Origin: an uncultured Candidatus Woesearchaeota archaeon
Lineage (GTDB): Archaea > Nanobdellota > Nanobdellia > Woesearchaeales > DSVV01
Reading direction: 5' to 3'
Assembly: GCA_963717515.1 (NCBI GenBank)
Contig: OY970338.1
Coordinates: 1,172,861-1,236,860 of the forward strand
DNA: 64,000 bases
Part shown: positions 1 through 20,623 of the stretch, in pieces
Numbering within the stretch: position 1 is the first letter of the stretch
How the letters are laid out: the number at the start of each line of letters is the position of its first letter
Translations under genes and position numbers: made by a program
The notes under the pieces: model-generated
Databases searched by the model: none
The model's input: the letters and a program-made list of their open reading frames with translations, nothing else
Told to the model about the DNA's origin: nothing

Positions 1-1859
1 TTGCAGACAGATGCTCCCCTCCACGGACCAGGATGCCAGGGACCATATACACCCACGGCCTGGACCATTCTATCATAAGGAACAATGTGATATACAATTC
101 ATTCGGAGCATTCAGTTTCGGCGAGCAGTACAAGAGCCCGGAATACAACTGGATATACCACAATACAGTCTATAAATCCAATAAATTCGATGGTGAGAAC
201 TGGAACCATGGGATAATGTGGTATGATGAAAGCCACCCGGACCAGGCATTCCAGAACAACCATTTCATAAACAACATCATGTATGACACCGGGAATGATG
301 ACAATTATATCATAAAAGTTCGGAATGTCTATGGTCCCGGGCTGAACCCGAACAACAATGTGATAAGCAACAACCTGCTTGGTGATCCTGACCCTTTCAA
401 GATACAATGGGGAGACAGCACAGGGACATTGTCTCACATCGAGGATGTCGAATCTGATTGGGTGAAAGGGACCAATGTCGACGGCGACCCTATGTTTGTC
501 GATACTGACATAACTGACCCTGATCTTTCACTGAGACAAGAGTCTCCTGCAATCGACAAGGGGACGTGGCTTGCGACTGTCAAAGCCGTCTCTGGCAATG
601 TGATTACTGTCGATGATGCGACCCCGTTCTTCTCTGGGCCTGGCGCGCCATGGTTCATAATCCATCCAGACATCAAGGCAGACACGATATACAGCCAGGA
701 CCACGATTCCGCCCTCATACAATCGATAGATTATGGTGCAAACAAATTGACTGTCGACAGCGCTTCTGGTTTTTCAGCAGGTGATAAGCTGACTGTTGTC
801 GATTTTTCAGGCACTTTGCCAGATATAGGTGCATTTGAATATACAGGAAATGCTCCTCAACCGTATTGTGGTGATGAGACGTGCAACGGGGCAGAGACCT
901 GCACATCATGCCCTGGTGATTGTGGTGCCTGCCCACCTGCCTGTGGTGATGGGACATGCAATGGAGCAGAGACCTGTTCATCATGTCCAGAGGATTGCGA
1001 TGCATGCGCTTCTTGTGGTGATGGGAAATGTGATTCAGATGAGTCATGTTCGACATGTCCTTCTGACTGCAGTTCATGTCCTGAGGGTTATTACGAGACC
1101 CAGGAATCAGAGGACGACCTGATTGAGTCAGTATATCCTGATTACAATTACGGCGTCATGGATTCATTCTACATCGGCTCGAGGAATGATGGTTGGGGCT
1201 CAAGATTCTTGATAAAGTTCCCTGGACTCATATCATCAGGCGCAGTCCCGGAGGGTTCAAGCATCGATTCAGCCTCGCTCATACTTACTAATGTGGATCC
1301 ACAGAGAGTGAATTCACCGATCGACCTGAAGATAAGGCGGGTCATTGAATCATGGACAGAAGGCGACTCAAACCCTGCTACTGTTGCAGATCCTGGAGAG
1401 ACTACATGGGACTACAGAGCTTACAATACTGTCCAATGGGAAGATGAAGGATGCTCACCACCTGGTTCATCATCAACATCAGGAGAGGTTTCGAAGACCT
1501 ATTCAACAAACCCATCGGAAGGCACACAATCAGCATTTGATGTCACTTCTATTGTCCAGGAGTGGGCTGACAATGGAGAGAGCTCTAACAACGGCTTCAT
1601 CTTGCTTGCACCTGGGCAGGAGATGTCGACTATGAATTTCGTGAGGTTTGCTTCATCTGAATATCTAAATCCTGCATACAGGCCGAAACTTGTCGTGCAG
1701 TTCACAGCTGGCAGCCCATGCGGTCATGCAGACCTGCCTCCGCAGGACAATGCCATCGACATAGGTGAACTCATAAGCTTCATCAACAGATGGAAAAGCG
1801 GCGATGTCGGGATATCTGAACTCATGGATGCCATTGGAAAGTGGAAGAGCGGGTGTTAG
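1..1859 (+). CDS. Array member A, 5'-truncated by the window edge. Secreted modular protein: end of a right-handed beta-helix, 3 Cys-rich minimodules, a DNRLRE/CBM96-like domain and the C-terminal double-WKSG tail.
   Basis: The frame is open from nt 3 to the TAG at 1857-1859. The first ATG (33) is not followed by a signal peptide, so the N-terminus lies upstream of the window. Motifs: QESPAIDKG, DIGAFEY, CGDxxCNGAETCxSCPxDCxxC x3, YPDYNYG..RFLIKF..ESWTEG, and a tail C-x44-C ending GKWKSGC (nt 1719-1856). Confidence 0.8.
   Translation, partial: ADRCSPPRTRMPGTIYTHGLDHSIIRNNVIYNSFGAFSFGEQYKSPEYNWIYHNTVYKSNKFDGENWNHGIMWYDESHPDQAFQNNHFINNIMYDTGNDDNYIIKVRNVYGPGLNPNNNVISNNLLGDPDPFKIQWGDSTGTLSHIEDVESDWVKGTNVDGDPMFVDTDITDPDLSLRQESPAIDKGTWLATVKAVSGNVITVDDATPFFSGPGAPWFIIHPDIKADTIYSQDHDSALIQSIDYGANKLTVDSASGFSAGDKLTVVDFSGTLPDIGAFEYTGNAPQPYCGDETCNGAETCTSCPGDCGACPPACGDGTCNGAETCSSCPEDCDACASCGDGKCDSDESCSTCPSDCSSCPEGYYETQESEDDLIESVYPDYNYGVMDSFYIGSRNDGWGSRFLIKFPGLISSGAVPEGSSIDSASLILTNVDPQRVNSPIDLKIRRVIESWTEGDSNPATVADPGETTWDYRAYNTVQWEDEGCSPPGSSSTSGEVSKTYSTNPSEGTQSAFDVTSIVQEWADNGESSNNGFILLAPGQEMSTMNFVRFASSEYLNPAYRPKLVVQFTAGSPCGHADLPPQDNAIDIGELISFINRWKSGDVGISELMDAIGKWKSGC
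867..1082 (+). repeat. Three tandem in-frame Cys-rich coding repeats of ~23-25 aa each
   Basis: The translated units are CGDETCNGAETCTSCPGDCGACPPA, CGDGTCNGAETCSSCPEDCDACAS and CGDGKCDSDESCSTCPSDCSSCP. Confidence 0.85.
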
Positions 1860-1876
1860 ATATTTTTATTGGTAGA

Positions 1877-1892
1877 AAATTTTATATATATA
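1877..1892 (+). promoter_or_regulatory. Archaeal TATA-box-like element for array member B
   Basis: aaattttatatatata is centred ~26 nt upstream of the ATG at 1911. No Shine-Dalgarno sequence is present, which fits a leaderless or near-leaderless mRNA. Confidence 0.6.
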
Positions 1893-1910
1893 CCTTCTCA
1901 ATATAGAATT

Positions 1911-4406
1911 ATGAAAAGAGGTTTGATAATTTTTGTTTTGGGTTTGTTTTTAGTTAGTTTTGCTTCTGCGGAAAATCATTATGCAACACAGGACGGTGCG
2001 GGAAGCATGGATGGCTCGTCGTTGGGCAATGCGTGGAGCGTCGCCAATTTCAACAATATTGCAAACTGGAATTCTGTTTTGAATACCAACGATAAAAAAA
2101 TAGGTCCTGGAGATACTGTTTATTTTTCAGGGACTATTACTGGTCAGATTACTCCTCAGGGTCCAGGAAAATCTGGCAATCCAATTATACTTGATGGTTA
2201 TGAATTAGGGGATTGTAATCCTATTACTTCTGAATGCACAAGCTCTGCATATTTTAGTAATTCAGTGAAAATAAATAAAGACTACATAAAGATCCAGGAT
2301 ATTCGATTTAGCGATCTGAGCCGGGCAGTTATTATAGGTGAAGGAGGTCCATATGTAACAGGCGCGGAAGTTAGGAATTGCGCCTTTGGAAAAGGCACAT
2401 GGGCATCATTAATTGTTTATCGTGGAAATGACTGTATCATAGATGGTAATTACTTGAATAATCATGTAGGAAATTTTCCTGATGGAAGCAAACCAGGCCA
2501 AAATATACAAATTCTTGGCGGCAAAAGAAACATAATCACAAATAATGTAATCATTGGAGGAAAAACAGGCATCATATTAAAATATGCTAGAGATGGAAAT
2601 GGTGGTGGCTATGATTCTTTCTTTGAGGATAATATCATTATGTACAATGACGTCGGTTCTCATACCGAAGAAGGGATAAGTATCGACGCTAATTTTCATT
2701 CAGCTACGACGGCTACTATAGATTATGATTTAGTTTCATCAATTAATAGTGCAGAGATAACTCTTTCAGATTCTGAATTTGGTGGAGGAAATGACCCTAA
2801 TTTAATAGGATATTATATAGTTCCTGTAACTGGAAGTGCAATAGGTCAATATAAAAAAATTACAGGTCAATCCGGAGCCACATTTACAGTAGAAAGCGCA
2901 TTTACAGGGCTTTTAGCTGGTGATGGTGTTTCAATTATGGGTGTATTTAAGGATAATTTAATAGCATATAATACAGTAACTGGTGGTTACGATAAATCAC
3001 AGATTATACTCTATGGAAATGCATTTAATAATCGGATTGAACATAATCAACTTGAAGATGGCAGAGGAGGTATTTCTATTCGGTCCATTGACAGGGCTGA
3101 ACCTTCGGTCATAAGTGTGACAGGAAATGGAGAACGGGGACCATGCGGTTATAATCTTATTCAGGACAATACTGCTTATCAAATTTATATCCGATATCGA
3201 TGCCTCGACCAAGGTGGCTCCTATGGGCCTTACAATTCCTACGGTAATACTGTCATCGACAATACAATAACTGATGTATTGAACGTAAATTACCAGTACT
3301 ATTATTCATCAGGAAACACTGGCGGCTATTCCTTATCTGAAACAAACGGAAATGATTGCAGTGGAACCATATCTCCTTATGCTGTCGCATTGCAAAGTTC
3401 GCCGGTAGATTTATCTCTTGGTGTGTGCTCCGAAGGAAAGATAACAGATTGGTGTTCATGCGATGGAATGGATTATCCATCTGGTTATTGCTGTTCTGGA
3501 GTATGGCAGGCTTATCAATGTTCAACGGCAACTCCTTACTGCGGAGACACAACATGCAACAACGGAGAAACATGTGGAGCAACAAACAATGCCCCTGAAT
3601 GCAATTTAGACTGTGGAACTTGCCCTCTGCCGCAACAGCAAAACCCAATAATTCATTATACAATGGATTCAGGAGACATTTCAGGAGGAAAAGTTCTTGA
3701 CACTTCTGGCAATCATATTGATGCAACAGTTTATGGAATTCCTCAGCAGGTTACTGGAAAAATTTCAGGAGCTCTGCATTTCAATGGGGTTAATGATTAT
3801 CTTGATACAGGCTATACAAATCAGATTGTTAACTGGACAGTTTCAGTTTGGGTTAAGGGAGATTCAAACCCGGCTTCAAGCAAAGATGCCGGGCCTGTAA
3901 TGAAAGAAGAAAATTTTAATTTAGCATGGGACCATACGGCCAGCAGGTTTATAGGGTCAGTGGGTCTGAGGGTTGGGAACACATGGTATCCTGCATCTTT
4001 CGGAACACTTGTGAACTCAACATGGTACAATTTGGTTGGGACATATGACGGAGAGACTTTAAGAGCGTACAGAGATGGACAACTTATAACTTCAAATACT
4101 GACCCATCAGGAATCCCTTATACGGCAGCCGCATCAATGAAAATAGCGAGGCATGCAGTAAATAATTATTTCTTTGCTGGAGATGTGGATGATGTTAAAA
4201 TATGGAATAGGGTATTGTCAGCTTCGGAAATCCAGAACCTTTATCTGCAGGGAGATGGTTCATCCTGCAACTCTCTCGCAGACTCTAACAGCGACGGAGT
4301 TATCTCGATATCTGAATTAATCAATTATATCTCCCAATGGAAAACAGGAAGCGTTACAATCGAAAATCTGATTGACGCAATCGAGAAATGGAAATCAGGA
4401 TGCTAG
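1911..4406 (+). CDS. Array member B. Secreted right-handed beta-helix protein with a Cys-rich segment, a LamG/concanavalin-like domain and the double-WKSG tail.
   Basis: The ATG at 1911 gives the signal peptide MKRGLIIFVLGLFLVSFASA; the ORF-track start at 1869 is a TTG located inside the TATA region. The core is beta-helix-like and rich in N/G/I repeats. YCGDTTCNNGETC..CNLDCGTCP is present, as is a LamG_3-like region (ALHFNGVNDYLD...WTVSVWVK...WYNLVGTYDG..LRAYRDG...DDVKIWNRVLSASEIQNLY). Tail is at nt 4266-4403. Confidence 0.85.
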   Translation: MKRGLIIFVLGLFLVSFASAENHYATQDGAGSMDGSSLGNAWSVANFNNIANWNSVLNTNDKKIGPGDTVYFSGTITGQITPQGPGKSGNPIILDGYELGDCNPITSECTSSAYFSNSVKINKDYIKIQDIRFSDLSRAVIIGEGGPYVTGAEVRNCAFGKGTWASLIVYRGNDCIIDGNYLNNHVGNFPDGSKPGQNIQILGGKRNIITNNVIIGGKTGIILKYARDGNGGGYDSFFEDNIIMYNDVGSHTEEGISIDANFHSATTATIDYDLVSSINSAEITLSDSEFGGGNDPNLIGYYIVPVTGSAIGQYKKITGQSGATFTVESAFTGLLAGDGVSIMGVFKDNLIAYNTVTGGYDKSQIILYGNAFNNRIEHNQLEDGRGGISIRSIDRAEPSVISVTGNGERGPCGYNLIQDNTAYQIYIRYRCLDQGGSYGPYNSYGNTVIDNTITDVLNVNYQYYYSSGNTGGYSLSETNGNDCSGTISPYAVALQSSPVDLSLGVCSEGKITDWCSCDGMDYPSGYCCSGVWQAYQCSTATPYCGDTTCNNGETCGATNNAPECNLDCGTCPLPQQQNPIIHYTMDSGDISGGKVLDTSGNHIDATVYGIPQQVTGKISGALHFNGVNDYLDTGYTNQIVNWTVSVWVKGDSNPASSKDAGPVMKEENFNLAWDHTASRFIGSVGLRVGNTWYPASFGTLVNSTWYNLVGTYDGETLRAYRDGQLITSNTDPSGIPYTAAASMKIARHAVNNYFFAGDVDDVKIWNRVLSASEIQNLYLQGDGSSCNSLADSNSDGVISISELINYISQWKTGSVTIENLIDAIEKWKSGC

Positions 4407-4593
4407 ATAAATTTATATATGCAATTCCTATGTAATCCTAAGTAAAATGAAAAGGGGATTGATGGTGATGGTCTGTTTGGTTTTTTTTGTTAGCTTTGTC
4501 AGTGCCACTAATTATTATGTTTCACCTGCGGGTTCTGCATCGTGGGCTTCATGCACAAATATCAATACTCCTTGTTCATTATCAACTGCAAAT
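4272..4593 (+). repeat. Junction repeat R1, copy a: 322 bp, 100% identical to 17857-18178
   Basis: Base-by-base comparison at an offset of 13585 nt. The repeat covers the last 135 nt of gene B, the intergenic promoter and the first 147 nt of gene C (signal peptide plus conserved N-terminus). Confidence 0.95.
4406..4420 (+). promoter_or_regulatory. Conserved array promoter motif GATAAATTTATATAT (TATA box) for member C
   Basis: The motif starts at the last base of the preceding stop codon. The ATG at 4447 lies ~32 nt downstream of the TATA centre. Confidence 0.65.
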
Positions 4594-7017
4594 TCAAATG
4601 CTGTTGCAGATGATGTTGTTTATCTGCGAGGAGGGACTTACAGTACAAGCCTTAATCCGACTAATTCCGGTTCGGCGGGTCATGTCATCACTTTTAAATC
4701 TTATACCGGAGAACAGGCATATCTTGAAAATACAAACATTGCGATTGATTTAACATCAGGTCAATCCTATATAGTACTCGACACTTTATATTCAGGGAAT
4801 AATAACAAAGAAAGGCTTCTTGTTGCTACAAATGGGCTTTACAATGAAGTAAAAAATTGCCATTTTACGGAAAGAACAACTGTTACCACCTATAGTTTTT
4901 CAAATCTAGAATATTGTCAGTATTGGAATATACACGATAATATTTTTGATTATGCAGGGCCTTATCCAGGTGACGGATGGAGCGATTATACAGGAACAAT
5001 GTTAATGCTCTTTCGCAGTCACTATAATTACATCCATGACAATACTTTCATAAATGGGGCTGATCATGACTATTTTGATTTAGCTCAATCCAATTTCAAT
5101 ATCGTAAAAAATAATGTCTTTTATAATGATGGATCACATATTAGTTGGTATGACCAAAACCACGATGCCACTATAAATGGGCCAAATGAGATGTTTTGTG
5201 TGGAAGAAACCTCTTCTTACAATCTGCTTGAAGGGAATAAATTCCATGAAGAGGGGAATCAGATTGGCGATACTGGTGGCTGTGGATATCATTTAGAAAG
5301 TGCCAGTGCTAATATTTTAAGAAGGGGTGTCTTTTATGATGTAGATGGTTTTGCCATTGATATCTATGCCCCTGGTAAAAATGCATGGAATAACAGATTT
5401 TATTTCAATACTATATATAACCTTCAACACTATCCGAGATATGGAGATGGTTGGCATGGACCAATCGTTTTGCTCAAGTTCTCAACTGTTTATTCAATAC
5501 AATACAATATCTTTAAAAACAACATCCTTTCCGAATGCGGCAATGGTCTTTCTGAAGGTGATAGCGACAACTACAATACTATTCTTAATAATCTGTTTCA
5601 AGGAAATTGGCTCTATGACACAACCGGATCAGAAGTCCAAAGATATATAGATGGAACGGGGATGCAAACTAAAACATTGGCAGAGGCACATGATTTGTGG
5701 CCTGATGAATTTTCTGACAATACTGCCGGAACAGACCCAAAGTTCACTGATCCAACTGGAACACCCCGTGATTTTACTTTACAAGGAACTTCTCCATGCA
5801 TTAATACTGGATTATGGCTTACTTTTATTTCTTCTGCCAATGGCAACAGTCAAACTTTCACAGTAGATGATCCTTATTATTTTTCTGTCGGGATACCACA
5901 ACTTTCAATCTCGGGGGATACAATAGAAACCCAAAGTGGGCAAAAAGCAGTAATAACGAATATAGATTATGCAAACAAAAGGATAACGGTTGATCATTCA
6001 GTCTCATGGGCACATGGAGAAGGCCTGGCCCTCGATTATTCCGGCTCGGCTCCCGATTTAGGTGCTATAGAGTATACTGCAACAGGAACATGCACAGAAA
6101 ACTGGCAATGCACTTCCTGGAGCGCGTGGTCTTTATGTGTTAATAATCTGCAGACAAGAACAAGGACATGCACTGACATGAACAGCTGCGGAACAACAAC
6201 AAGCAAGCCAAGCGAATCTGAAACTCAGGCATGCTCATCTTCAACAAACACCTACACAATCCTGAAATCTTCATCACCTCCAACTATCGACGGAATTTTA
6301 AACGAATTCGCAAATGCAAATTCATTAACAATAACCAATTCAAATGGAAATTCTGCAACTTACAAAATGCTTTGGGACAGCAATAATTTGTATATTGCAG
6401 CCCAGGGAAGTGACAGTCAGCTTGCAGCAATAGCCTCAGAAAGAGACGGCGCATTATGGGATGATGATGCAATTGAGTTGTTCTTCGATACACTGAACAA
6501 CGGAGGAATATTTTTGAATTCAGATGATTACAAGTTTTTTGTGAATCTGCTTAATACTACAAGAGATAGTTATTTTGGTGGTGGAGGAAGTTCATGGAAC
6601 ACTATATTTAATTCGGCGGTCACAACTTCAGGAACTCTGAATGTTGCAGGCAATGTTGATGCTGGCTATACAATTGAGATTGCAATTCCCTGGAGTAATT
6701 GGGGTGTTTCGGTTCCAGTAGATAGTTCTGTTTGGGGTTTTGATGTATCAATGGACGACAGAAATGATGCAGGAGATGTAATCCAGAAAGCATGGTCCCA
6801 GACAAATGTGGGCAATATTCCTGATGAGTTCGGAGATGTAACTTTCTCGTCGCAGTTTGTTTCTTCTGGAAGCGTCTGCAAATCTCTCGCAGATTCTAAC
6901 AGCGACGGAGTTATCTCGATATCTGAATTGATTAATTATATCTCCCAATGGAAATCAGGAAGTGTTTCAATAACTCAGCTGATTGATGCTATTGGAAAGT
7001 GGAAGAGCGGGTGCTAG
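4447..7017 (+). CDS. Array member C. Secreted beta-helix protein with a TSP1-like module, a CBM9-like domain and the double-WKSG tail.
   Basis: Signal peptide MKRGLMVMVCLVFFVSFVSA, conserved N-terminus ATNYYVSPAGSASW..CSLSTANSNAVA, and DFTLQGTSPCINTG (beta-helix cap). The TSP1-like segment CTENWQCTSWSAWSLC..RTRTC..SCG..QAC is at nt 6091-6234. The CBM9-like part reads PPTIDG..MLWDSNNLYIAA..WDDDAIELFFDT..GYTIEIAIPW..VWGFDVSMDDRND. Tail is at 6877-7014. Confidence 0.9.
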   Translation: MKRGLMVMVCLVFFVSFVSATNYYVSPAGSASWASCTNINTPCSLSTANSNAVADDVVYLRGGTYSTSLNPTNSGSAGHVITFKSYTGEQAYLENTNIAIDLTSGQSYIVLDTLYSGNNNKERLLVATNGLYNEVKNCHFTERTTVTTYSFSNLEYCQYWNIHDNIFDYAGPYPGDGWSDYTGTMLMLFRSHYNYIHDNTFINGADHDYFDLAQSNFNIVKNNVFYNDGSHISWYDQNHDATINGPNEMFCVEETSSYNLLEGNKFHEEGNQIGDTGGCGYHLESASANILRRGVFYDVDGFAIDIYAPGKNAWNNRFYFNTIYNLQHYPRYGDGWHGPIVLLKFSTVYSIQYNIFKNNILSECGNGLSEGDSDNYNTILNNLFQGNWLYDTTGSEVQRYIDGTGMQTKTLAEAHDLWPDEFSDNTAGTDPKFTDPTGTPRDFTLQGTSPCINTGLWLTFISSANGNSQTFTVDDPYYFSVGIPQLSISGDTIETQSGQKAVITNIDYANKRITVDHSVSWAHGEGLALDYSGSAPDLGAIEYTATGTCTENWQCTSWSAWSLCVNNLQTRTRTCTDMNSCGTTTSKPSESETQACSSSTNTYTILKSSSPPTIDGILNEFANANSLTITNSNGNSATYKMLWDSNNLYIAAQGSDSQLAAIASERDGALWDDDAIELFFDTLNNGGIFLNSDDYKFFVNLLNTTRDSYFGGGGSSWNTIFNSAVTTSGTLNVAGNVDAGYTIEIAIPWSNWGVSVPVDSSVWGFDVSMDDRNDAGDVIQKAWSQTNVGNIPDEFGDVTFSSQFVSSGSVCKSLADSNSDGVISISELINYISQWKSGSVSITQLIDAIGKWKSGC

Positions 7018-7216
7018 GAAGATAAATTTATATACTATAATCTCAATGTAATCCTATGAAAAGAGGATTGATGGTGATGGTCTGCTTGGTTTTTCTGGTT
7101 AGTTTTGTTAGTGCGACGAATCATTATGTCTCTCCTTCTGGTTCTGCTTCGTGGTCCTTATGTACAAATATAAACACTCCTTGTTCATTATCAACTGCAA
7201 ATTCAAATGCTGTTGC
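6301..7216 (+). repeat. Junction repeat R2, copy a: 916 bp, 100% identical to 14789-15704
   Basis: Every 60-nt line was compared at an offset of 8488 nt. The repeat covers most of the CBM9-like domain and tail of gene C, the intergenic promoter and the first 161 nt of gene D. Confidence 0.95.
7021..7035 (+). promoter_or_regulatory. Conserved array promoter motif GATAAATTTATATAC for member D
   Basis: The motif lies 4 nt after the stop of gene C. The ATG at 7056 is ~28 nt downstream of the TATA centre. Confidence 0.65.
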
Positions 7217-9707: not shown

Positions 9708-9710
9708 GAA

Positions 9711-9730
9711 GATAAATTTATATATATATA
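9711..9730 (+). promoter_or_regulatory. Conserved array promoter motif GATAAATTTATATATATATA for member E
   Basis: The motif follows the stop of gene D. The ATG at 9747 is ~27 nt downstream of the TATA centre. Confidence 0.65.
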
Positions 9731-9746
9731 TTTTCTATGTAGTTAC

Positions 9747-12230: not shown

Positions 12231-12234
12231 GAAA

Positions 12235-12645: not shown

Positions 12646-13148
12646 TTTATTCTCCCACTTAAGATATACCCGTTTATTATATTATTCCTAAGTTCCAGAT
12701 TATTAATATCTTTTATTGATTTAAAGAAGAATAATTGTATTTTTCTTTTTAATTTTTTTTCGAATTTGTTCAGGTCAATTGTTTTTTTATTACCTAACAC
12801 GCACAGATCCATGTCGGAATTTTCTTTTGTTTCTGCTTTTGCCAACGAGCCAAATAAGATAATTGAAGGGCTTAACACTGATTTGTTTAGATAATCAATG
12901 AATTCTGATAATCTATCCCTCCAATAGATCCTTGATAAGTCAACAAAATCCTTACTGTCTTTATTTGCATAATAGGAAATATAATTTCGATCTTTTTCGA
13001 CCAACAACAATCCAGATTTATTATATTGAGATAGAATTTTAGAGGCTGTTGGGGGGGATATTTTATTTATTTTTGAGTATTTCCTAACGTGGATTCCTCT
13101 ATAACAATCTTCAAAAAAAGGTCTTAGATTGTTAATTATATTTAACAT
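12642..13148 (-). CDS. Minimal nucleotidyltransferase (MNT) with an N-terminal wHTH, the putative antitoxin of an MNT/HEPN pair
   Basis: NTase signature ILFGSLAKAETKENSDMDLCVLG (G-S...D-x-D) and an N-terminal wHTH-like ISPPTASKILSQYNKSGLL. A TATA-like aaatttataaac lies on the minus strand ~25-30 nt upstream. Confidence 0.7.
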   Translation of the reverse strand: MLNIINNLRPFFEDCYRGIHVRKYSKINKISPPTASKILSQYNKSGLLLVEKDRNYISYYANKDSKDFVDLSRIYWRDRLSEFIDYLNKSVLSPSIILFGSLAKAETKENSDMDLCVLGNKKTIDLNKFEKKLKRKIQLFFFKSIKDINNLELRNNIINGYILSGRIK

Positions 13149-13191
13149 ATGTAAAGAATAATTAACAACTGTTTATAAATTTTTCTGTTGT

Positions 13192-13398
13192 TTGAACTGT
13201 TCAGTTGTTATATCAGACCCTAATGGAGACGACATGAATGTTTCAGTGAGATGGTACAAGAATGATGCCTTGAATTTTACTCTTGATTATAACAATAGTT
13301 ATCCAAGCAGTTCTGTGTTCAGTGCAATTCTTGGTTCAGGAAACACAAGCAAGGGAAAGAACTGGACCTGCAGTATTAGATTGGATGATGGGATTTGA
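13192..13398 (+). pseudogene. Remnant (3' fragment) of a surface-protein gene, encoding a single Ig-like repeat fragment
   Basis: The ORF opens with TTG only and has neither an ATG nor a signal peptide. The translation ..CSVVISDPNGDDMNVSVRWYKND...GKNWTCSIRLDDGI matches the D-x-D-G-D...W-Y-x-N...W-x-C...DG pattern of repeat domains in surface proteins. It is followed by the array promoter motif, as the intact members are. Confidence 0.5.
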
Positions 13399-13406
13399 TT
13401 AAAAAA

Positions 13407-13424
13407 GATAAATTTATATATATA
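13407..13424 (+). promoter_or_regulatory. Conserved array promoter motif GATAAATTTATATATATA for member F
   Basis: The ATG at 13442 is ~27 nt downstream of the TATA centre. Confidence 0.65.
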
Positions 13425-13441
13425 ATTTCTTAATTAAGTTT

Positions 13442-15505
13442 ATGAAAAAGAGTGTGATAATTTTTGTTTGTTTGGTTTTTTTGGTTAGTTTTTCTAGTTA
13501 TTCAAATCTTGTTTCAGCAAATATAGATTTCCATCAGAGTTTTGATTCTGAAAGTGCCCCATATCCAGGAACTTCATGCACAGGTGTAGATGATCTTTAT
13601 TATAATTCATTAAACTATGGGCCTACTGGTTGGTATCCTAATTGTATGACAGAACTACGAACAGATGTAAATGATCGAAGCTCCCCTAGTACTGGAAAGA
13701 CCGTAACTTTCGTTTGTGATTGGGTTGATTGCTCTGAAAGAGCCTCATCTCAAAGAGCAAATATGAATATTTGTCAACCAACTGCATGGGGGGCAAGTTC
13801 GCCAGCTTGTGCTGATGGGGGGGATTATAATGACGGTACAGAATATTGGGTAGGTATGAGTTATTATATCCCAGTAAATAATGGATTTGAAGAAGGTGGT
13901 GGAGTAATGATGTTCCAGTTTCTTGGAGGAGGGAGTGATCACAATATTCGCCTTAGCTCTCCCTCTGTAGCATACGGATCTATGCCTAATTACCAAATAG
14001 GTTATCGCCAGGATAATAGCACAAGTGGTTGGGGTAAAGATTCTGGAATAAGCATGTCATCTACAGAAGGAACGTGGCTTGATGTTGTGGTTCAATGGGT
14101 TCCTTATACATATGATAATACAAATGCTACTATAAAAATGTGGATTAATGGTCAAAATGTTCTTGATAAAGTAGGCAAACAAACTTTTAAAACATCGTCA
14201 GGCGGACCATGGTTTCAGTTTATACTATACAATAAAGGTTGTTATCCACAATTTGATTGTCTTACTAACTGCAAGGATGCGGATGATGGGCCTGTTGAGG
14301 ATTGGAGAGTTTTAAGAATTGATGAAATAAGATTTACAGAAAATACAATGGGAACTAAAGAATATTGCTTAGTCGCCCCTCCAATCTGGGCAGCAAAACC
14401 ATCCATAAGTTATCCATCAAATGGAGCAATAAATATCCCAAGCTCATTCACAGCAACATACAGCGGGTATGTAGACCATCGCAATGACCCTCAAAATTGT
14501 TTCTCATATACAAAAACACAAATCCAGATTGATGAACAAGGAGGGGATTGGTCAACTCCTGTTTATGATTCAGGAGAGATAAATGCACAAACAAGCAACT
14601 CAATAAGCGGATTATCCTCGCAGCAATACCAAATGAGAGTGAGACACGAGTCAGTTAGGAGCGGAACATCAGACACTTACTGGGGGGAGTGGTCTGATAC
14701 TATCTTTTTCACAGTTGGGGCATCAACAACAAATAAAACCTACACAATCCTGAAAACTTCAACACCTCCAACTATCGACGGCAATATTAACGAATTCGCA
14801 AATGCAAATTCATTAACAATAACCAATTCAAATGGAAATTCTGCAACTTACAAAATGCTTTGGGACAGCAATAATTTGTATATTGCAGCCCAGGGAAGTG
14901 ACAGTCAGCTTGCAGCAATAGCCTCAGAAAGAGACGGCGCATTATGGGATGATGATGCAATTGAGTTGTTCTTCGATACACTGAACAACGGAGGAATATT
15001 TTTGAATTCAGATGATTACAAGTTTTTTGTGAATCTGCTTAATACTACAAGAGATAGTTATTTTGGTGGTGGAGGAAGTTCATGGAACACTATATTTAAT
15101 TCGGCGGTCACAACTTCAGGAACTCTGAATGTTGCAGGCAATGTTGATGCTGGCTATACAATTGAGATTGCAATTCCCTGGAGTAATTGGGGTGTTTCGG
15201 TTCCAGTAGATAGTTCTGTTTGGGGTTTTGATGTATCAATGGACGACAGAAATGATGCAGGAGATGTAATCCAGAAAGCATGGTCCCAGACAAATGTGGG
15301 CAATATTCCTGATGAGTTCGGAGATGTAACTTTCTCGTCGCAGTTTGTTTCTTCTGGAAGCGTCTGCAAATCTCTCGCAGATTCTAACAGCGACGGAGTT
15401 ATCTCGATATCTGAATTGATTAATTATATCTCCCAATGGAAATCAGGAAGTGTTTCAATAACTCAGCTGATTGATGCTATTGGAAAGTGGAAGAGCGGGT
15501 GCTAG
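13442..15505 (+). CDS. Array member F. Secreted protein in which a jelly-roll (polysaccharide-lyase/ConA-like, tentative) N-terminal domain and an FN3-like domain replace the beta-helix, followed by a CBM9-like domain and the double-WKSG tail.
   Basis: Signal peptide MKKSVIIFVCLVFLVSFSS..VSA. The N-terminal ~300 aa is unrelated to the other members (..EYWVGMSYYIP..MMFQFLGGGSDHNIRL..WLDVVVQWVPY..IKMWINGQNV..). An FN3-like segment ends in YWGEWSDTIFFTV. The last ~240 aa are identical to gene C (repeat R2). Tail is at 15365-15502. Confidence 0.85.
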   Translation: MKKSVIIFVCLVFLVSFSSYSNLVSANIDFHQSFDSESAPYPGTSCTGVDDLYYNSLNYGPTGWYPNCMTELRTDVNDRSSPSTGKTVTFVCDWVDCSERASSQRANMNICQPTAWGASSPACADGGDYNDGTEYWVGMSYYIPVNNGFEEGGGVMMFQFLGGGSDHNIRLSSPSVAYGSMPNYQIGYRQDNSTSGWGKDSGISMSSTEGTWLDVVVQWVPYTYDNTNATIKMWINGQNVLDKVGKQTFKTSSGGPWFQFILYNKGCYPQFDCLTNCKDADDGPVEDWRVLRIDEIRFTENTMGTKEYCLVAPPIWAAKPSISYPSNGAINIPSSFTATYSGYVDHRNDPQNCFSYTKTQIQIDEQGGDWSTPVYDSGEINAQTSNSISGLSSQQYQMRVRHESVRSGTSDTYWGEWSDTIFFTVGASTTNKTYTILKTSTPPTIDGNINEFANANSLTITNSNGNSATYKMLWDSNNLYIAAQGSDSQLAAIASERDGALWDDDAIELFFDTLNNGGIFLNSDDYKFFVNLLNTTRDSYFGGGGSSWNTIFNSAVTTSGTLNVAGNVDAGYTIEIAIPWSNWGVSVPVDSSVWGFDVSMDDRNDAGDVIQKAWSQTNVGNIPDEFGDVTFSSQFVSSGSVCKSLADSNSDGVISISELINYISQWKSGSVSITQLIDAIGKWKSGC

Positions 15506-15704
15506 GAAGATAAATTTATATACTATAATCTCAATGTAATCCTATGAAAAGAGGATTGATGGTGATGGTCTGCTTGGTTTTTCTGGTTAGTTTTGTTAGT
15601 GCGACGAATCATTATGTCTCTCCTTCTGGTTCTGCTTCGTGGTCCTTATGTACAAATATAAACACTCCTTGTTCATTATCAACTGCAAATTCAAATGCTG
15701 TTGC
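14789..15704 (+). repeat. Junction repeat R2, copy b: 916 bp, 100% identical to 6301-7216
   Basis: See copy a. This copy spans the 3' end of gene F, the promoter and the 5' end of gene G. Confidence 0.95.
15509..15523 (+). promoter_or_regulatory. Conserved array promoter motif for member G, identical to 7021-7035
   Basis: It lies inside repeat R2 copy b. Confidence 0.65.
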
Positions 15705-17991
15705 AGATGATGTTGTTTATCTTAGAGGGGATTCGTACACTGGAAGTGCTTTGCAACCAGCCCATTCCGGTTCATCTGGCCATCCGATTACTTATAAAAA
15801 TTATCCAGAAGAGACAGCAATATTCAGCGGTATGAATAATGGTATTAATCTTGCAAACAGAAGTTATATTACAATCGACGGCACAGACTCAAACTTTGGG
15901 ATACGGATACAGAATACTCATAATACTTGGATTGCCCTGTCAAGTTCGAGTCATATTATAATTCAACATTGTTATATGCGGAATAATAGAGGTTGGGCTG
16001 GTATTTCTGCAACAGGGTCTAATAGTTATATCCAAGTTCTAAATAATAATATGGCGAATGATGGTAAAAATGATTTCAATGATATAGTTTATTTCAGAGA
16101 TTCTGCTAATTACAATGTGTTTGAAGGAAATTATTTTGGTGATGCTGGACATACCGCATTGAATATTCATGGCTATGCAACAGCCCCCATCTTCAATGTT
16201 GTCAGGAATAATGTTTTTGAAAATACAAAACATGGTGGCCTTGGGATTTGGCCCAGTGGATCAGATCCATATTATGTTCTGTTTGAAGGGAATATCATTA
16301 AAAATGGAGGTACGGATAAGTTGAATGCCGCTCCTCCATCAAATACCAGCCAATCCCATGCTGTACAGGTTGGAGCAACTTATATAATTGGCAGAAAAAA
16401 TATATTGTATGGCAATAAGCCTGCTCCTGATGATAATTCTGGATATATGGTTATAGCTTTAACATTTGCTACATATGATGATGGTAAACCCAAGAATTGG
16501 TATAGCTCTTATTATCATAATACTTTTTATGATAATGAATATCCGATATTTGTTCGTGACAATCTATTACAAATGAAAGATAACGTCATTAAAAATAATA
16601 TTATCTATAAAAACGAGCATGATATATATTCTTGGCCGCGGTTAATTCCTGGCGTAGAATATATAAATAATTCAGGTAACAGCATAGATCCCCATTTCGT
16701 TAATATAGGGGGGGGTGATGATTTTACGCTTCAGTCAGATTCGGCCATGATAGACGCGGGCGGGTGGTTGACATTTATAACCTCAGCAACAGGTTCTGGT
16801 AAAACATCTTTTACAGTCGATCGTTCATTATACTTCTATGATGGGTGGGGTATACCTGGTGAAACCGGAGATGTAATAAAAACCCAGAACGGGCAGACAA
16901 CAACAATCCAGTCAATAAATTATGATACAAATATGATCACAGTATCCCCTGCAATAAACATTGTCAATGGTGAAGGTCTTTCATTAGATTATTCAGGCTC
17001 AGCACCAGACATTGGAGCATTTGAATATGCTTCAACTCCAACTTACTCCTGCACTGGCACAATACCTTCAAACGCAGCAGCATGGGATAGTGAAGAAAGT
17101 GAAAATCTGGGAGCGGACACTCCATGGACTTATTCAAGCTCAGATACTTCAATAAAATGTCAGTACCATTGCAATAGCGGATATACCTGGAGTGGAAGTT
17201 CTTGTGTTTTGCAGCAGCAAACATACTCCTACACAATCCTAAAGACTAATTTACCACCAACTATCGACGGAATTTTAAACGAATTCGCAAATGCAAATTC
17301 ATTAACAATAACCAATTCAAATGGAAATTCTGCAACTTACAAAATGCTTTGGGACAGCAATAGTTTGTATATTGCAGCCCAGGGAACCGATGACCAGCTT
17401 GCGGCTATTGTAAATATAAAAGACCAGACAGGAATCTGGGATGATGATTCAATTGAACTTTTCTTTGACACACTAAACAACGGAGGAAAATCATCAAATT
17501 CAGATGATTACAAGTTCTTTGTGAATCTTCTAAACACTTCTTATGATTTTTATAATGGTGGGGGAGGGGTTTCGTGGAATACTGCTTTAAGCTCTAAAAC
17601 TACAACTTCAGGAACATTAAATGTTGCAGGCAATGTTGATGCAGGCTACACAATTGAGGTTGCGATTCCATGGAAAGACTGGGTTGCACCTTCGGATAAT
17701 TCTGTGTGGGGCTTTGATGTTAACATGAATGACAGAAGAGACAACGGTACAAGAATCTGGGAAGCGTGGTCTGAGACAAGCGGGCTTAATATTCCTAATG
17801 AGTTTGGGGATGTCACTTTCTCGTCGCAGTTTGTTTCTTCTGGAAGCGTCTGCAAATCTCTCGCAGACTCTAACAGCGACGGAGTTATCTCGATATCTGA
17901 ATTAATCAATTATATCTCCCAATGGAAAACAGGAAGCGTTACAATCGAAAATCTGATTGACGCAATCGAGAAATGGAAATCAGGATGCTAG
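15544..17991 (+). CDS. Array member G. Secreted beta-helix protein with a Cys-containing linker, a CBM9-like domain and the double-WKSG tail; its ends are mosaic.
   Basis: The first 161 nt are identical to gene D. The next 18 nt (agatgatgttgtttatct) are identical to gene C. The core is unique. At the 3' end, 53 nt identical to C/F switch to 135 nt identical to gene B. DFTLQSDSAMIDAG and a CBM9-like region are present. Tail is at 17851-17988. Confidence 0.9.
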   Translation: MKRGLMVMVCLVFLVSFVSATNHYVSPSGSASWSLCTNINTPCSLSTANSNAVADDVVYLRGDSYTGSALQPAHSGSSGHPITYKNYPEETAIFSGMNNGINLANRSYITIDGTDSNFGIRIQNTHNTWIALSSSSHIIIQHCYMRNNRGWAGISATGSNSYIQVLNNNMANDGKNDFNDIVYFRDSANYNVFEGNYFGDAGHTALNIHGYATAPIFNVVRNNVFENTKHGGLGIWPSGSDPYYVLFEGNIIKNGGTDKLNAAPPSNTSQSHAVQVGATYIIGRKNILYGNKPAPDDNSGYMVIALTFATYDDGKPKNWYSSYYHNTFYDNEYPIFVRDNLLQMKDNVIKNNIIYKNEHDIYSWPRLIPGVEYINNSGNSIDPHFVNIGGGDDFTLQSDSAMIDAGGWLTFITSATGSGKTSFTVDRSLYFYDGWGIPGETGDVIKTQNGQTTTIQSINYDTNMITVSPAINIVNGEGLSLDYSGSAPDIGAFEYASTPTYSCTGTIPSNAAAWDSEESENLGADTPWTYSSSDTSIKCQYHCNSGYTWSGSSCVLQQQTYSYTILKTNLPPTIDGILNEFANANSLTITNSNGNSATYKMLWDSNSLYIAAQGTDDQLAAIVNIKDQTGIWDDDSIELFFDTLNNGGKSSNSDDYKFFVNLLNTSYDFYNGGGGVSWNTALSSKTTTSGTLNVAGNVDAGYTIEVAIPWKDWVAPSDNSVWGFDVNMNDRRDNGTRIWEAWSETSGLNIPNEFGDVTFSSQFVSSGSVCKSLADSNSDGVISISELINYISQWKTGSVTIENLIDAIEKWKSGC

Positions 17992-18178
17992 ATAAATTTA
18001 TATATGCAATTCCTATGTAATCCTAAGTAAAATGAAAAGGGGATTGATGGTGATGGTCTGTTTGGTTTTTTTTGTTAGCTTTGTCAGTGCCACTAATTAT
18101 TATGTTTCACCTGCGGGTTCTGCATCGTGGGCTTCATGCACAAATATCAATACTCCTTGTTCATTATCAACTGCAAAT
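17857..18178 (+). repeat. Junction repeat R1, copy b: 322 bp, 100% identical to 4272-4593
   Basis: See copy a. This copy spans the 3' end of gene G, the promoter and the 5' end of gene H. Confidence 0.95.
17991..18005 (+). promoter_or_regulatory. Conserved array promoter motif for member H, identical to 4406-4420
   Basis: It lies inside repeat R1 copy b. Confidence 0.65.
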
Positions 18179-20623
18179 ACAAATGCTGTTGCAGAGGATG
18201 TTGTTTATTTCAGGACGGGGACTTATACAACTTCACTCAATCCTGCACATTCAGGAGTTTCAGGAAATCCAATTACATTTGCAGCTTACAATGGAGAAAA
18301 TGCATACCTTGAAAACGGTAATTATGCCATAGACCTGAGGAATGGCCAGGATTATCTTATTATTGACGGGTTCAAATCAGATAATGCAAAACAATATGAA
18401 TTGTTTGCGCAAAACTCAACACACGTGGAACTTAAAAACTGCCATTTTAGTGTTAATATGCCAGGTGCAACAGCTTGGTTTTCTGTGGATATTGATGCAG
18501 GATGCAGTTACTGGAGTATTCATAATAATAAATTTGATGTTATACAAAGGCCAACTGGTCTTTTGAATGAAAGTGGAGGGTCACTCTTGGGAATTGGAGG
18601 CTCGGCAAATCCAGCACATCATAATTATATTTACAATAATATATTTATTGATGGCATGAACCATGACTTTTTTGCACTTTCTTACTCTGATTATAATGTA
18701 GTTGAAAATAATACTTTCTATAATACTGGAACATGGGTTTGCACTTCTGATCCTGGAACATGTGCTGTTGGCCCAGGAGAGACCATGCAGATAGAAAAAG
18801 GCGCGGACCATAATGTTATTGAAAATAATGTTTATCATGAGACATCAAGAAATTTTGGTGATAGTCATATGGTGGGGATTCATCAACTTAATTCAAAATA
18901 TAATATTTATAGAGGAAATATCGGATATGATTATGATGGGTGGGGAATTGATATTTATACAGGGCCTAATTATGGATATGCTGATACGGACTACAACCGC
19001 ATATATAGCAACACTTATTACAATATGATGTCGTCCACTTATTATTCAAATGATGGGCATGGGGTTATACGACTTTATGACTATCAATCTAATCAATATT
19101 TAAAACATACAAAGGTTGTTAATAATGTAGTCTCAACATCGGGCAAGAGAGCTTTTGAGGCAAATGAGATTTATTCTGGAATGCTTCTTCCGTATAGCAA
19201 TGAGTTCTTTGGAAACTGGCTTTATTATATAGCACAATCAACTGAAGTTAGAAGATATACGCCAAATGATTCAACACAATATTATACAATCTCACAAGCC
19301 CAGACAAATTTTCCATCGGAATTCCACGACAACAGCCCTAATGACCTCATAGACCCAAAACTAACAAACCCTGCAAGCGGCGACATGAGGCTGCAGTCAA
19401 GTTCTCCATGTATCGACGCTGGGCAGTGGCTAACAACAATAACCTCAGCAACAGGTTCAGGTACAAGCTTTGTTGTTGCAGACCCGTATTTCTTCTTTGA
19501 TGGTTATGGAATATCTGGGGTTTCAGGAGACACAATAAAAACTCAAAATGGACAGAAAACAACAATCCAGTCAATCAACTACAACACAAAAACAATTACA
19601 GTTTCTCCTGCAATAAACATTGTCAACGGAGAAGGATTGTCACTGGACTATTCAGGAAGCAAGCCAGATATCGGGGCAATCGAGTATACTGCAACAGGAA
19701 CCTGTAATGAAAACTGGCAGTGCACTTCCTGGAGCGCGTGGTCTTTATGTGTTAATAATCTGCAGACAAGAACAAGGACATGCACTGACCTGAAAAGCTG
19801 CGGGACAACAACTAACAAGCCTTCTGAATCAGAAACTCAATCATGCTCACCTTCTGCAAAATCCTACACAATCCTGAAAACTCAAAATCCAATAACTGTC
19901 GACGGCAATCTAAATGAATTCGCAAATACAAACCCGATAACAATAACAAACTCAAACGGGAACTCATTGATATACAAAATGCTCTGGGACAGCAATAATC
20001 TATACATTGCTGCGCAAGGAAGCGACAGCCAGCTTGCGGCAGTTTTAAACACAAGAGACGGAAGTGTGTGGAATGATGATGCAATTGAATTGTTCTTCGA
20101 CACATTAAATAACGGAGGAACAACGCTCCAGAGTGATGATTATAAGTTCTTTGTTAATCTTCTTAATGTTCAGAGAGATAACAGTGTTGGCGATGGAGGA
20201 GTTTCATGGAACACTGTATTCACTTCAGCTGTAACAACAACAGGAACATTGAATGTTGCGGGAGACACAGACACTGGCTATACGATTGAAGCTGCAATTC
20301 CATGGGCAGGCTGGGTTACACCTTCGGATAATAGTGTATGGGGTTTTGATGTATCAATGGATGACAGGAATGACGCAGGAAGCACAATTCAGAAAACAAG
20401 GTCGCAGACAAACGTTGGCAATATCCCTGATGAGTTTGGAGATGTTGTGTTTTCTTCGCAGTATGTCGTTTCAGGTTCAGAATGCAACTCTGATGCTGAT
20501 TCAGACGGAGATTCAAATATTTCAATAGGAGAACTGATCAATTACATCTCAAGATGGAAATCCAGAAATGTCTCAATCCTCAAGCTGGTCGAGGCAATTG
20601 ACAACTGGAAAAACGGCTGTTGA
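18032..20623 (+). CDS. Array member H. Secreted beta-helix protein with a TSP1-like module, a CBM9-like domain and a diverged double-WKSG tail.
   Basis: The signal peptide and N-terminus are identical to gene C. DMRLQSSSPCIDAG is present. The TSP1-like module CNENWQCTSWSAWSLC..RTRTC is at nt 19703-19846. A CBM9-like region follows. The tail at 20483-20620 ends NWKNGC. Confidence 0.9.
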   Translation: MKRGLMVMVCLVFFVSFVSATNYYVSPAGSASWASCTNINTPCSLSTANTNAVAEDVVYFRTGTYTTSLNPAHSGVSGNPITFAAYNGENAYLENGNYAIDLRNGQDYLIIDGFKSDNAKQYELFAQNSTHVELKNCHFSVNMPGATAWFSVDIDAGCSYWSIHNNKFDVIQRPTGLLNESGGSLLGIGGSANPAHHNYIYNNIFIDGMNHDFFALSYSDYNVVENNTFYNTGTWVCTSDPGTCAVGPGETMQIEKGADHNVIENNVYHETSRNFGDSHMVGIHQLNSKYNIYRGNIGYDYDGWGIDIYTGPNYGYADTDYNRIYSNTYYNMMSSTYYSNDGHGVIRLYDYQSNQYLKHTKVVNNVVSTSGKRAFEANEIYSGMLLPYSNEFFGNWLYYIAQSTEVRRYTPNDSTQYYTISQAQTNFPSEFHDNSPNDLIDPKLTNPASGDMRLQSSSPCIDAGQWLTTITSATGSGTSFVVADPYFFFDGYGISGVSGDTIKTQNGQKTTIQSINYNTKTITVSPAINIVNGEGLSLDYSGSKPDIGAIEYTATGTCNENWQCTSWSAWSLCVNNLQTRTRTCTDLKSCGTTTNKPSESETQSCSPSAKSYTILKTQNPITVDGNLNEFANTNPITITNSNGNSLIYKMLWDSNNLYIAAQGSDSQLAAVLNTRDGSVWNDDAIELFFDTLNNGGTTLQSDDYKFFVNLLNVQRDNSVGDGGVSWNTVFTSAVTTTGTLNVAGDTDTGYTIEAAIPWAGWVTPSDNSVWGFDVSMDDRNDAGSTIQKTRSQTNVGNIPDEFGDVVFSSQYVVSGSECNSDADSDGDSNISIGELINYISRWKSRNVSILKLVEAIDNWKNGC

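Follow-up and report, generated by a model that had tools for sequence, protein, structure and literature searches.

What function is served when eight neighbouring genes for secreted proteins, with bodies as little as 18% identical, all end in the same short module? The question is raised by a 64,000-nucleotide (nt) stretch of DNA (here called the window) from an uncultured Woesearchaeota archaeon, a tiny organism of symbiotic type (assembly GCA_963717515.1, contig OY970338.1, positions 1,172,861 to 1,236,860 of the forward strand), one end of which is occupied by a tandem array of such genes. The shared C-terminal module, which we call the tail, appears from sequence comparison to be a previously undescribed mini-domain of ∼ 46 amino acids (aa) from DPANN archaea (Woese-, Pace-, Aenigmat- and Nanoarchaeota lineages). 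Most likely, this 46-residue module tethers secreted proteins to a common partner, much as a dockerin does in the cellulosomes of bacteria. The more specific proposal, that the tail is a docking tag to a shared, genome-specific surface partner which would retain glycan-degrading enzymes and lectins, is the one we favour, at a little under an even chance.

Eight consecutive open reading frames (ORFs) on the plus strand (genes A–H, window positions 3–20623, Table 1) each close in a tail of 45–46 aa that is followed by the stop codon. An initial annotation of this DNA had described eight same-strand genes with a common tail, and the ORF listing and translation agree exactly with the tail positions it gave. 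Across the array the N-terminal bodies are 18–50% identical, the CBM9 parts 63–92% and the tails 50–100%. When the eight tails are aligned (alignment A1), 17 of the 46 columns are invariant (C1, I15, E17, L18, I19, I22, W25, K26, V30, I32, L35, A38, I39, W42, K43, G45 and C46) and the mean column identity is 82%. Each window tail gives E-values of 1e-20 to 1e-25 against a profile made from the tails of other organisms, thus the similarity is far above chance. The tails of genes C and F are identical at the DNA level, that of gene H is the most divergent of the eight (...NWKNGC) and in that of gene A the 13-residue loop is degenerate (DLPPQDNAIDIGE). As gene A lacks a signal peptide and its reading frame runs open to window position 3, it is cut off at the window edge; further members of the array probably lie upstream of the window. 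The product of gene B, counted from the ATG at 1911, has 831 aa (P0005).

The bodies proposed in the initial annotation (beta-helix, CBM9, DNRLRE/CBM96 and LamG) were recovered in Pfam, NCBIfam and PDB comparisons. CBM9_1 is found in genes C–H (E 1e-20 to 1e-24; CBM9_1 also matches PDB 1I82), Laminin_G_3 in B, CBM96/DNRLRE in A, Beta_helix in C and D, and PF14099 in F. An AlphaFold model of the gene C product (47-sequence alignment) contains a confident right-handed beta-helix at residues 21–530; the CBM9 region adjoining the tail is poorly modelled. The best PDB neighbours of this beta-helix are LnbX, the pectate lyase Pel9A, PL6 alginate/chondroitin lyases, RbmB and phage tailspike depolymerases.

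The tail itself is laid out as a Cys, a 12-residue EF-hand-type loop, a first helix ending in W-K-x-G, a truncated second loop and a second helix ending in W-K-x-G-Cys. The loop consensus is D-x-N/D-x-D/N-G/S-x-I/V-x-x-x-E; in 54 aligned tails, position 1 is D in 85%, position 3 N/D in 78%, position 5 D/N in 98% and position 6 G in 52% or S in 30%, while I/V at position 8 and E at position 12 are found in all (100%). The canonical EF-hand type of the loop and the duplicated helix, both recognized at the outset, stand on this conservation and on the alignment. The exact start D-S-N-S-D-G, which had been assigned to genes B, C, D, F and G, holds for B, C, F and G but not for D, where the loop reads D-A-N-S-D-G. 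The two helix units, [IV]-S-I-x-E-L-I-x-Y-I-x-x-W-K-x-G and V-T-I-x-x-L-I-x-A-I-x-x-W-K-x-G, have the common core xxELIxxIxxWKxG and by their sequence are clearly duplicates. The second unit lacks loop positions 1–7 and starts at about loop position 8 (G-S-V-x-I-x-x-L), so that Ca2+ ligands are present in the first repeat only.

AlphaFold places the loop and two helices (residues 15–27 and 32–45) in the tail, with no helix ahead of the loop, which is preceded by the Cys and a linker. The predicted local distance difference test score is 78 for the tail alone and 86–94 inside full-length C; modelled in either way, the tail is a folded module, as its first description implied. Its architecture corresponds to an 'F-hand' (a loop with the helix that leaves it) in two copies, which the model folds into an antiparallel helical hairpin. 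From the alignment, A38 and G40 of helix 2 are expected to face Y21 and I19, as they would in such a hairpin. Each helix carries a single hydrophobic stripe (I-xx-LI-xx-I-xx-W), and the net charge of the tail is ∼ 0.

An exhaustive profile search over 1.84 billion representative proteins returned 964 representative clusters at E ≤ 1e-3 and 161 at E ≤ 1e-10; a word-indexed search with the same profile gave one 36-aa fragment only. Among the top 150, the module is at the extreme C-terminus in 136, of which 107 end exactly in ...WKxGC and 29 have 1–5 extra residues past the Cys; most of the remaining 14 are long repeat proteins of multi-EF-hand/TSP3-like type, in which the match is confined to the loop. 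Species-representative genomes, metagenomes and viral contigs were also searched with a degenerate DNA pattern that encodes L-[IM]-x-[AG]-I-x-x-W-K-x-G-C-stop. It gave 42 loci in the species-representative genomes, and those confirmed with a hidden Markov model (HMM) all lie in metagenome-assembled genomes (MAGs) of Woese-, Pace-, Aenigmat- or Nanoarchaeota type. The metagenomes contributed 73 loci with 76 tail ORFs, all with the tail C-terminal, and in the 91 ORFs from genome loci and 76 from metagenome loci the tail ends 0–4 aa from the end of the protein in every case. No viral contig matched the DNA pattern. Three bacterial loci (L094, L101 and L116) were rejected as carriers, being chance pattern matches, none with an HMM-confirmed tail. 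On the sequences searched, the tail family appears to be large and restricted to DPANN archaea.

The initial annotation had proposed a search for further carriers in the same genome; the single 1,838,930-bp NCBI/ENA contig that encodes the window proteins holds at least 13 more, for a genome total of at least 21. The MAG CAZPXC01 has at least 31 distinct tails, 14 or more of them in tandem on one 41-kb contig. No curated model in Pfam or NCBIfam covers the module above threshold, and the source annotations of the carriers read 'hypothetical protein' or 'parallel beta-helix repeat protein'. Full-text literature searches (DPANN/Woesearchaeota dockerins, GC-type dockerin, concanavalin and cell surface) turned up nothing that describes it.

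Of 184 unique tails, 135 have exactly two Cys residues. The one at the terminus does not vary, while its partner is placed either shortly ahead of the loop, at −16/−15 relative to the loop Glu, or at position 7 of the loop ('DGC[VI]' type). A partner that relocates while the pair is retained is the signature of an intramolecular disulfide, and the Cys covariation predicts that the module is very probably stapled by a disulfide from the terminal Cys to a Cys beside or inside the Ca2+ loop. In some members (L005_3863, L111 and L117_2227) the hairpin has the Cys bracket but no Ca2+ loop at all; that the helices form the conserved core had been guessed from gene A, and these members bear it out. 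The Ca2+ loop thus looks like an accessory to a Cys-bracketed helical hairpin core. The module also occurs N-terminally right after the signal peptide (P0082), internally (P0116) and twice in a secreted protein of 119 aa (P0120). Relocation of the Cys, occasional loss of the Ca2+ loop and N-terminal placement argue for an autonomous domain and against a cleaved sorting signal or a strictly C-terminal processing signal.

These features bear directly on covalent anchoring or processing, in which the protein would be held by a lipid on its C-terminal Cys or by a disulfide from that Cys to an envelope protein, or an archaeosortase-like sorting enzyme would recognize the tail and cleave it off. A terminal Cys in 107 of the 136 C-terminal tails and the strictly C-terminal placement in nearly all members are what such a mechanism calls for, but the 29 tails that run on for 1–5 residues, the N-terminal or internal copies that retain both Cys and the relocating partner, typical of an intramolecular disulfide, are not. 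Archaeosortase-type signals (PGF-CTERM, PEF-CTERM) carry a transmembrane (TM) helix and a basic cluster; the tails are amphipathic with neither, no hydrophobic C-terminal stretch follows any of the eight in the window, and no NCBIfam sorting-signal model matches them, in keeping with the initial annotation, which had seen no TM anchor or sorting signal. We consider covalent anchoring very unlikely.

A different use of the hairpin would be self-association, with tails paired, as is common for lone EF-hands and helical hairpins, in a four-helix bundle that dimerizes or multimerizes the enzymes and lectins and raises their avidity for glycans without a receptor. A two-helix hairpin leaves part of the hydrophobic stripes exposed, EF-hands normally function in pairs, P0120 has two modules in tandem, and the tail-gene neighbourhoods yielded no receptor gene (see below). 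However, A38 and G40, opposite Y21 and I19, suit a hairpin closed within one molecule, in which the stripe may be buried already, and self-association leaves unexplained why bodies of the same fold in other lineages carry type IX secretion system (T9SS), dockerin or TM tails. We regard it as unlikely.

A distinct tail subtype was found in L100, L103, L106, L114, L123, L127 and L166-type loci, mostly in Aenigmatarchaeota-labelled or unclassified archaeal MAGs. Its first half reads H-[KR]-[SA]-D-x-x-x-[CD]-[ND]-G-C-[VI]... and its second half ...W-[KY]-x-[DN]-S-x-x-x-T-L-K-E-L-I-E-A-I-G-L-W-K-R-G-C; here the partner Cys has been displaced into the Ca2+ loop, and the turn between the helices has 2 extra residues.

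A close parallel is the type I dockerin of cellulosomal enzymes. Like it, the tail is small and C-terminal, sits on Sec-secreted carbohydrate-active enzymes, consists of a duplicated F-hand with antiparallel helices, and occurs in many paralogues per genome with lineage-specific signatures. Unlike it, the tail has 46 aa instead of about 60–70, no inter-repeat linker and Ca2+ ligands in the first repeat only, where a dockerin has a Ca2+ loop in each of two repeats of ∼ 22 residues. Loop position 12 is Asp in dockerins and an invariant Glu in the tail, as in EF-hands. The Cys bracket, the W-K-x-G helix ends, the confinement to DPANN archaea and the failure to find a cohesin partner in the window and among 148 neighbours are further differences. 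Profile searches give the same picture. The comparison with Pfam Dockerin_1 (PF00404) that was to check the dockerin-like reading came out negative, with 0 of 36 diverse tails matching at E ≤ 1 and 0 of 4 window tails at E ≤ 10, and dockerins are absent from the best 60 PDB profile matches of the tail; the PDB hits are calmodulin-type EF-hand loops (E ∼ 0.002). Of that reading, a shared autonomous module on secreted glycan-active and lectin bodies is supported, and membership of the dockerin family is not.

Could the tail nevertheless be a true, divergent dockerin that binds the canonical cohesins of a scaffoldin encoded elsewhere in the genome, making up an archaeal cellulosome? The duplicated F-hand architecture, the C-terminal position on cargo resembling carbohydrate-active enzymes, the weak matches of 21 of 36 tails to NF041540 and a TM-anchored protein with a classical double dockerin-like repeat in the same genome (L129, 3465–5444) are all consistent with this, yet against them stand the empty Dockerin_1 search, the single Ca2+ loop, the Glu at position 12, the linker-less 46 aa and the lack of any cohesin among the 148 neighbours, which together make it highly improbable. 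The L129 protein is an observation in its own right. It is encoded on the minus strand of a Logan ERR11571143 contig and has 659 aa, with a signal peptide, the N-terminal repeat (DPDTNGDGCIDTADLNSV...DVNNDRIVNENDAEII), a long Cys-rich body and a C-terminal TM anchor, and its gene lies ∼ 2 kb from two more tail genes.

The loop of the tail resembles an EF-hand in its ligands at positions 1, 3, 5 and 12 (Glu) and its I/V at position 8, followed by the exiting helix. It follows the canonical EF-hand pattern, being degenerate in gene A and missing in a few members. The tail differs from EF-hand proteins in having no entering helix, a second unit without loop positions 1–7 and no pair of full EF-hands, and in being extracellular, disulfide-bracketed (both predicted) and terminal. 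Its best score against the EF-hand profiles (PF00036/PF13405/PF13202) is 20.3 bits compared with a cut-off of 25.4, and 21 of 36 tails match EF-hand_1 below threshold. Among curated anchor-type models the tails touch only one, NCBIfam NF041540 ('GC-type dockerin domain-anchored protein'), whose name suggests a dockerin-like C-terminal anchor that ends in Gly-Cys, as the tail does. Again 21 of 36 tails match, all far below threshold (best E 0.0024); a window tail scores 13.4 bits against a 29-bit cut-off, with residues 7–29 aligned to model positions 12–34 of 67. The model is thus longer than the 46-aa tail, only the first loop and helix align, and any relationship would be a putative one. On these comparisons, the module would functionally resemble a dockerin or other non-covalent anchoring tags, and its loop is closest to canonical EF-hands and faintly similar to NF041540, although it falls below the membership thresholds of all three; it may best be seen as a DPANN-specific variant on the theme of EF-hand-derived docking modules.

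A targeting or anchoring role is argued for by what the tails are attached to and by what replaces them. Cargo domains in 70 full-length carriers include Laminin_G_3 (21), Beta_helix (17), CBM9 (16), NosD-like (5) and F5/8 type C (4), with PF14099 lyase, GH5, apiosidase-like and pectate-lyase-like domains and disaggregatase repeats as further cargo. Every full-length carrier inspected starts with a Sec-type signal peptide. Elsewhere, homologues of the beta-helix bodies end in a T9SS Por_Secre_tail (P0163, P0167 and P0181), a Dockerin_1 domain (P0215) or a TM anchor (P0201), all in the slot taken here by the tail. This positional exchange with known anchors also bears on the suggestion that the tail is a purely structural C-terminal cap, a plug stabilized by Ca2+ and a disulfide that guards against exoproteolysis and has no targeting function. 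Every conserved residue can be read as structural (core Ile/Leu/Trp, capping Gly, Ca2+ ligands and the Cys pair), but a cap would hardly be expected on unrelated folds, at the N-terminus, or in more than 20 copies per genome with genome-specific signatures. We give it very little credence.

These genome-specific signatures (e.g. LIDAIGKWKSGC vs LIAAIAEWKNGC, LMTGIGEWKNGC, LIEAIGLWKRGC) are the pattern that a co-evolving partner would produce; tail identity is 76–91% within most genomes versus 27–70% between genomes. Under the docking proposal, the carriers would be exported by the Sec system via the classical N-terminal signal peptides seen in their sequences. Outside the cell the module would fold, bind Ca2+ and close its disulfide, as the motif and the Cys covariation suggest, and would then dock non-covalently to a common, genome-specific partner on the surface of the archaeon, whereby a changeable set of polysaccharide lyases/hydrolases and lectin/CBM proteins would be kept at the cell or host interface. 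The repertoire would be diversified by recombination, with divergent catalytic bodies swapped onto a homogenized CBM9-plus-tail cassette and a TATA promoter for each gene.

Several points weigh against docking. The W-K-x-G motif may be purely structural (a core Trp and a helix C-cap Gly), the two-helix hairpin could equally pair with itself, and gene conversion alone, of which the exact 322- and 916-nt repeats described below are evidence, can account for the similarity of tails within a genome. Ca2+ binding, the disulfide and surface localization are predictions from sequence. Foldseek gave no PDB match at E < 1 for the isolated tail model, a 46-aa hairpin being too nondescript. Pfam searches of 148 proteins flanking tail genes revealed no cohesin and no recurrent surface family (the top family is NTP_transf_2, 5 of 148), no cohesin was seen among the window proteins either, and clustering of the neighbours in 110 or more loci gave no partner. 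The only recurrent membrane-anchored neighbour, a protein of ∼ 380–410 aa with a signal peptide, Ig/CARDB-like domains and a C-terminal TM helix, stands beside tail genes in 5 independent loci, but two loci picked through it have no tail gene. The initial annotation had proposed a shared anchoring tag with a cohesin-like receptor elsewhere; the tag fits the anchoring and sorting tails on homologous bodies and the lack of a partner encoded nearby, whereas no cohesin was seen.

With no protein partner in the neighbourhoods, direct binding of the tail to a glycan or lipid of the envelope or of the host surface, such as a cell-wall polymer of the host or an S-layer glycan, in the manner of SLH, LysM, choline-binding and WxL modules, has to be weighed as well. 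The Trp and Lys pairs are conserved, and the murein hydrolase with SLT and LysM domains encoded by the same DPANN archaeon means that it probably contacts other cells. However, the module is very small and unlike known glycan-binding folds, a net charge of ∼ 0 is not typical of a membrane-binding amphipathic peptide, the Trp residues lie within the hydrophobic stripe and are likely buried, and the genome-specific signatures suit a protein partner better. Direct binding therefore seems to us quite improbable. The docking proposal also has a bolder form, in which the DPANN archaea own a Ca2+-dependent, disulfide-stapled 'mini-dockerin' display, with dozens of enzymes and lectins on a non-cohesin receptor, and module and receptor co-evolving in each genome. 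This extension is possible but doubtful.

As a receptor for the docking tag, the Ig-like/TM protein is a weak lead. In L003, the closest relative of the window organism, its gene follows a tail gene by 2 nt, and a 235-aa homologue (P0242) is encoded on the window's contig, with none in the window itself. The arrangement recalls the WxL/WxLIP (DUF916-DUF3324) complexes of Gram-positive bacteria, where a shared C-terminal module with two Trp motifs on secreted proteins is retained at the surface by a nearby-encoded Ig-like protein with a signal peptide and a C-terminal TM helix, an architecture similar to that of the ∼ 380-aa protein here. WxL domains are, however, much larger and beta-rich, the tails have no WxL/WxLIP match, and the ∼ 380-aa neighbour matches only WxLIP_HBD (E 9e-4, 19.6 vs 28.9 bits), in 2 of 5 members. 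Type IV pilus genes also came up in the neighbour clustering, close to tail genes in 4 MAGs.

Ig-like/TM proteins also belong to a conserved and apparently uncharacterized DPANN surface-gene module, which was seen at L003, L109/L168, L124, L195, L196, L203 and L204. It comprises a giant protein ending in '...VPP.E..G.K.S.I.FEA.YSG', small N-terminally anchored proteins and 1–2 Ig-like/TM proteins; at L203 it is followed by MoxR/DUF58/VWA genes.

Two genes downstream of the array (I and J, Table 1) were considered as well. Gene I encodes three Cys-rich 'TPCCG..C..GETYS.CP.DCPEC' repeats and has a borderline C-terminal S_layer_C match (PF05124, 23.1 vs 23.9 bits). Its lipoprotein-like signal would make the product membrane-tethered, and a receptor role is conceivable. 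The gene J product would be a second surface-anchored protein beside the array; about 480 aa of it have no family match. Both genes were set aside as partners, having no homologues beside tail genes elsewhere.

Two exact repeats run across gene boundaries within the array. The first (916 nt) takes in CBM9 and tail of one gene, the spacer and the 5′ part of the gene that follows; the second (322 nt) likewise extends from a 3′ gene end with its tail across the spacer into the 5′ part of the following gene. Judging from their sequence, they indicate recent gene conversion or segmental shuffling. Genes C (beta-helix) and F (PF14099 lyase) have an identical CBM9-plus-tail cassette on unrelated bodies, which points to recombination that shuffles bodies onto a homogenized tail. 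The TATA-box-like element listed in Table 1 has 8 matches in the window, compared with 0.07 expected by chance, and 7 of the 8 are in the array. Its position before each ATG suggests that genes B–H have individual promoters and near-leaderless transcripts and do not form one operon. The array (1869–20623) has a GC content of 38–41%, the gap between genes E and F 33% and the flanking housekeeping DNA 47–50%; the low value of the array could reflect its Asn/Ser/Ile-rich composition or a foreign origin. In the MAG of the closest relative (L095, 97% SecY identity), a tail gene directly abuts pyrB, so the region is not syntenic.

The sole gap in the array contains an opposite-strand pair, a Polbeta/NTP_transf_2 nucleotidyltransferase gene overlapping a gene for 136 aa, which by its sequence looks like a toxin–antitoxin system of the MNT/HEPN type. 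Beside the pair is a 68-aa remnant of a surface-protein gene.

Table 1. Positions of the features discussed, in window coordinates.
Feature	Position (nt)	Strand	Tail (nt)	Description
Gene A	3/33-1859	+	1719-1856	5′-truncated at window edge; DNRLRE/CBM96-like body
Gene B	ORF 1869-4406, probable start ATG 1911	+	4266-4403	Signal peptide MKRGLIIFVLGLFLVSFASA, Laminin_G_3
Gene C	4447-7017	+	6877-7014	Signal peptide, right-handed beta-helix (lyase/hydrolase fold), CBM9
Gene D	7056-9707	+	9567-9704	Signal peptide, beta-helix, CBM9
Gene E	9747-12230	+	12093-12227 (45 aa)	Signal peptide, beta-helix-like body, CBM9
Gene F	13442-15505	+	15365-15502	Signal peptide, Polysacc_lyase (PF14099) body, CBM9
Gene G	15544-17991	+	17851-17988	Signal peptide, beta-helix-like body, CBM9
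Gene H	18032-20623	+	20483-20620	Signal peptide, beta-helix-like body, CBM9
AA(A/T)TTTATATA	1878, 4409, 7024, 9714, 13410, 15512, 17994 (11 nt each)	+		Archaeal TATA-box-like element, 22-28 nt before ATG of B-H
Exact repeat, 916 nt	6301-7216 = 14789-15704			
Exact repeat, 322 nt	4272-4593 = 17857-18178			
136-aa gene of the pair	12235-12645	-		Pair spans 12235-13148
Nucleotidyltransferase gene	12642-13148	-		Polbeta/NTP_transf_2
Gene remnant	13192-13398	+		68 aa
Gene I	20686-21735	+		Directly after array; lipoprotein-like signal (LLVLGC)
Gene J	21874-23769	+		631 aa: signal peptide, Lamin Tail Domain (PF00932), C-terminal TM and basic tail
Twin-arginine signal gene	44226-45554	+		442 aa
SLT+LysM gene	45564-46643	+		Lytic transglycosylase

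The remainder of the window encodes an archaeal SecY, an archaeal-type PheRS, a pyrimidine operon and an H+-PPase. The SecY shares 97% identity with its counterpart in MAG CAYXZQ01 and 65–78% with those of dozens of Woesearchaeota/Nanoarchaeota MAGs. Third party annotation (TPA) MAGs titled 'uncultured Methanosarcinales archaeon' (L001–L006, L008 and many others) have SecY proteins 65–97% identical to that of the window; since their SecY groups with Woesearchaeota/Nanoarchaeota MAGs, these titles look wrong and are probably a mislabel. Further downstream, a gene for a 442-aa protein with a twin-arginine (SRRNFLK) signal is followed by one for an SLT lytic transglycosylase fused to LysM. The latter would be peptidoglycan-directed and suggests that the archaeon interacts with the walls of bacterial cells; murein hydrolases of a similar kind have been reported before from Woesearchaeota.

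A central open question about DPANN archaea is the way in which they attach to other cells and exploit them, and the majority of their large surface proteins are annotated as 'hypothetical'. Within the exoproteome the tail marks a whole subset, with 21 or more proteins in this genome and, across public data, about a thousand clusters, and so offers a sequence handle to catalogue DPANN surface enzymes. It can also serve as a bait for the receptor, be this the S-layer, a pilus, a host surface or another copy of the tail. As a very small module for Ca2+- and disulfide-dependent docking, it would be among the smallest of its kind and might find use in protein display. If the docking proposal is true, the tail would represent an independent evolutionary route from EF-hand to dockerin-like anchoring tag; and if the 'mini-dockerin' display exists, these archaea may possess a cellulosome-like machine with which they attach to, or digest, the envelopes or glycans of their hosts and environment.

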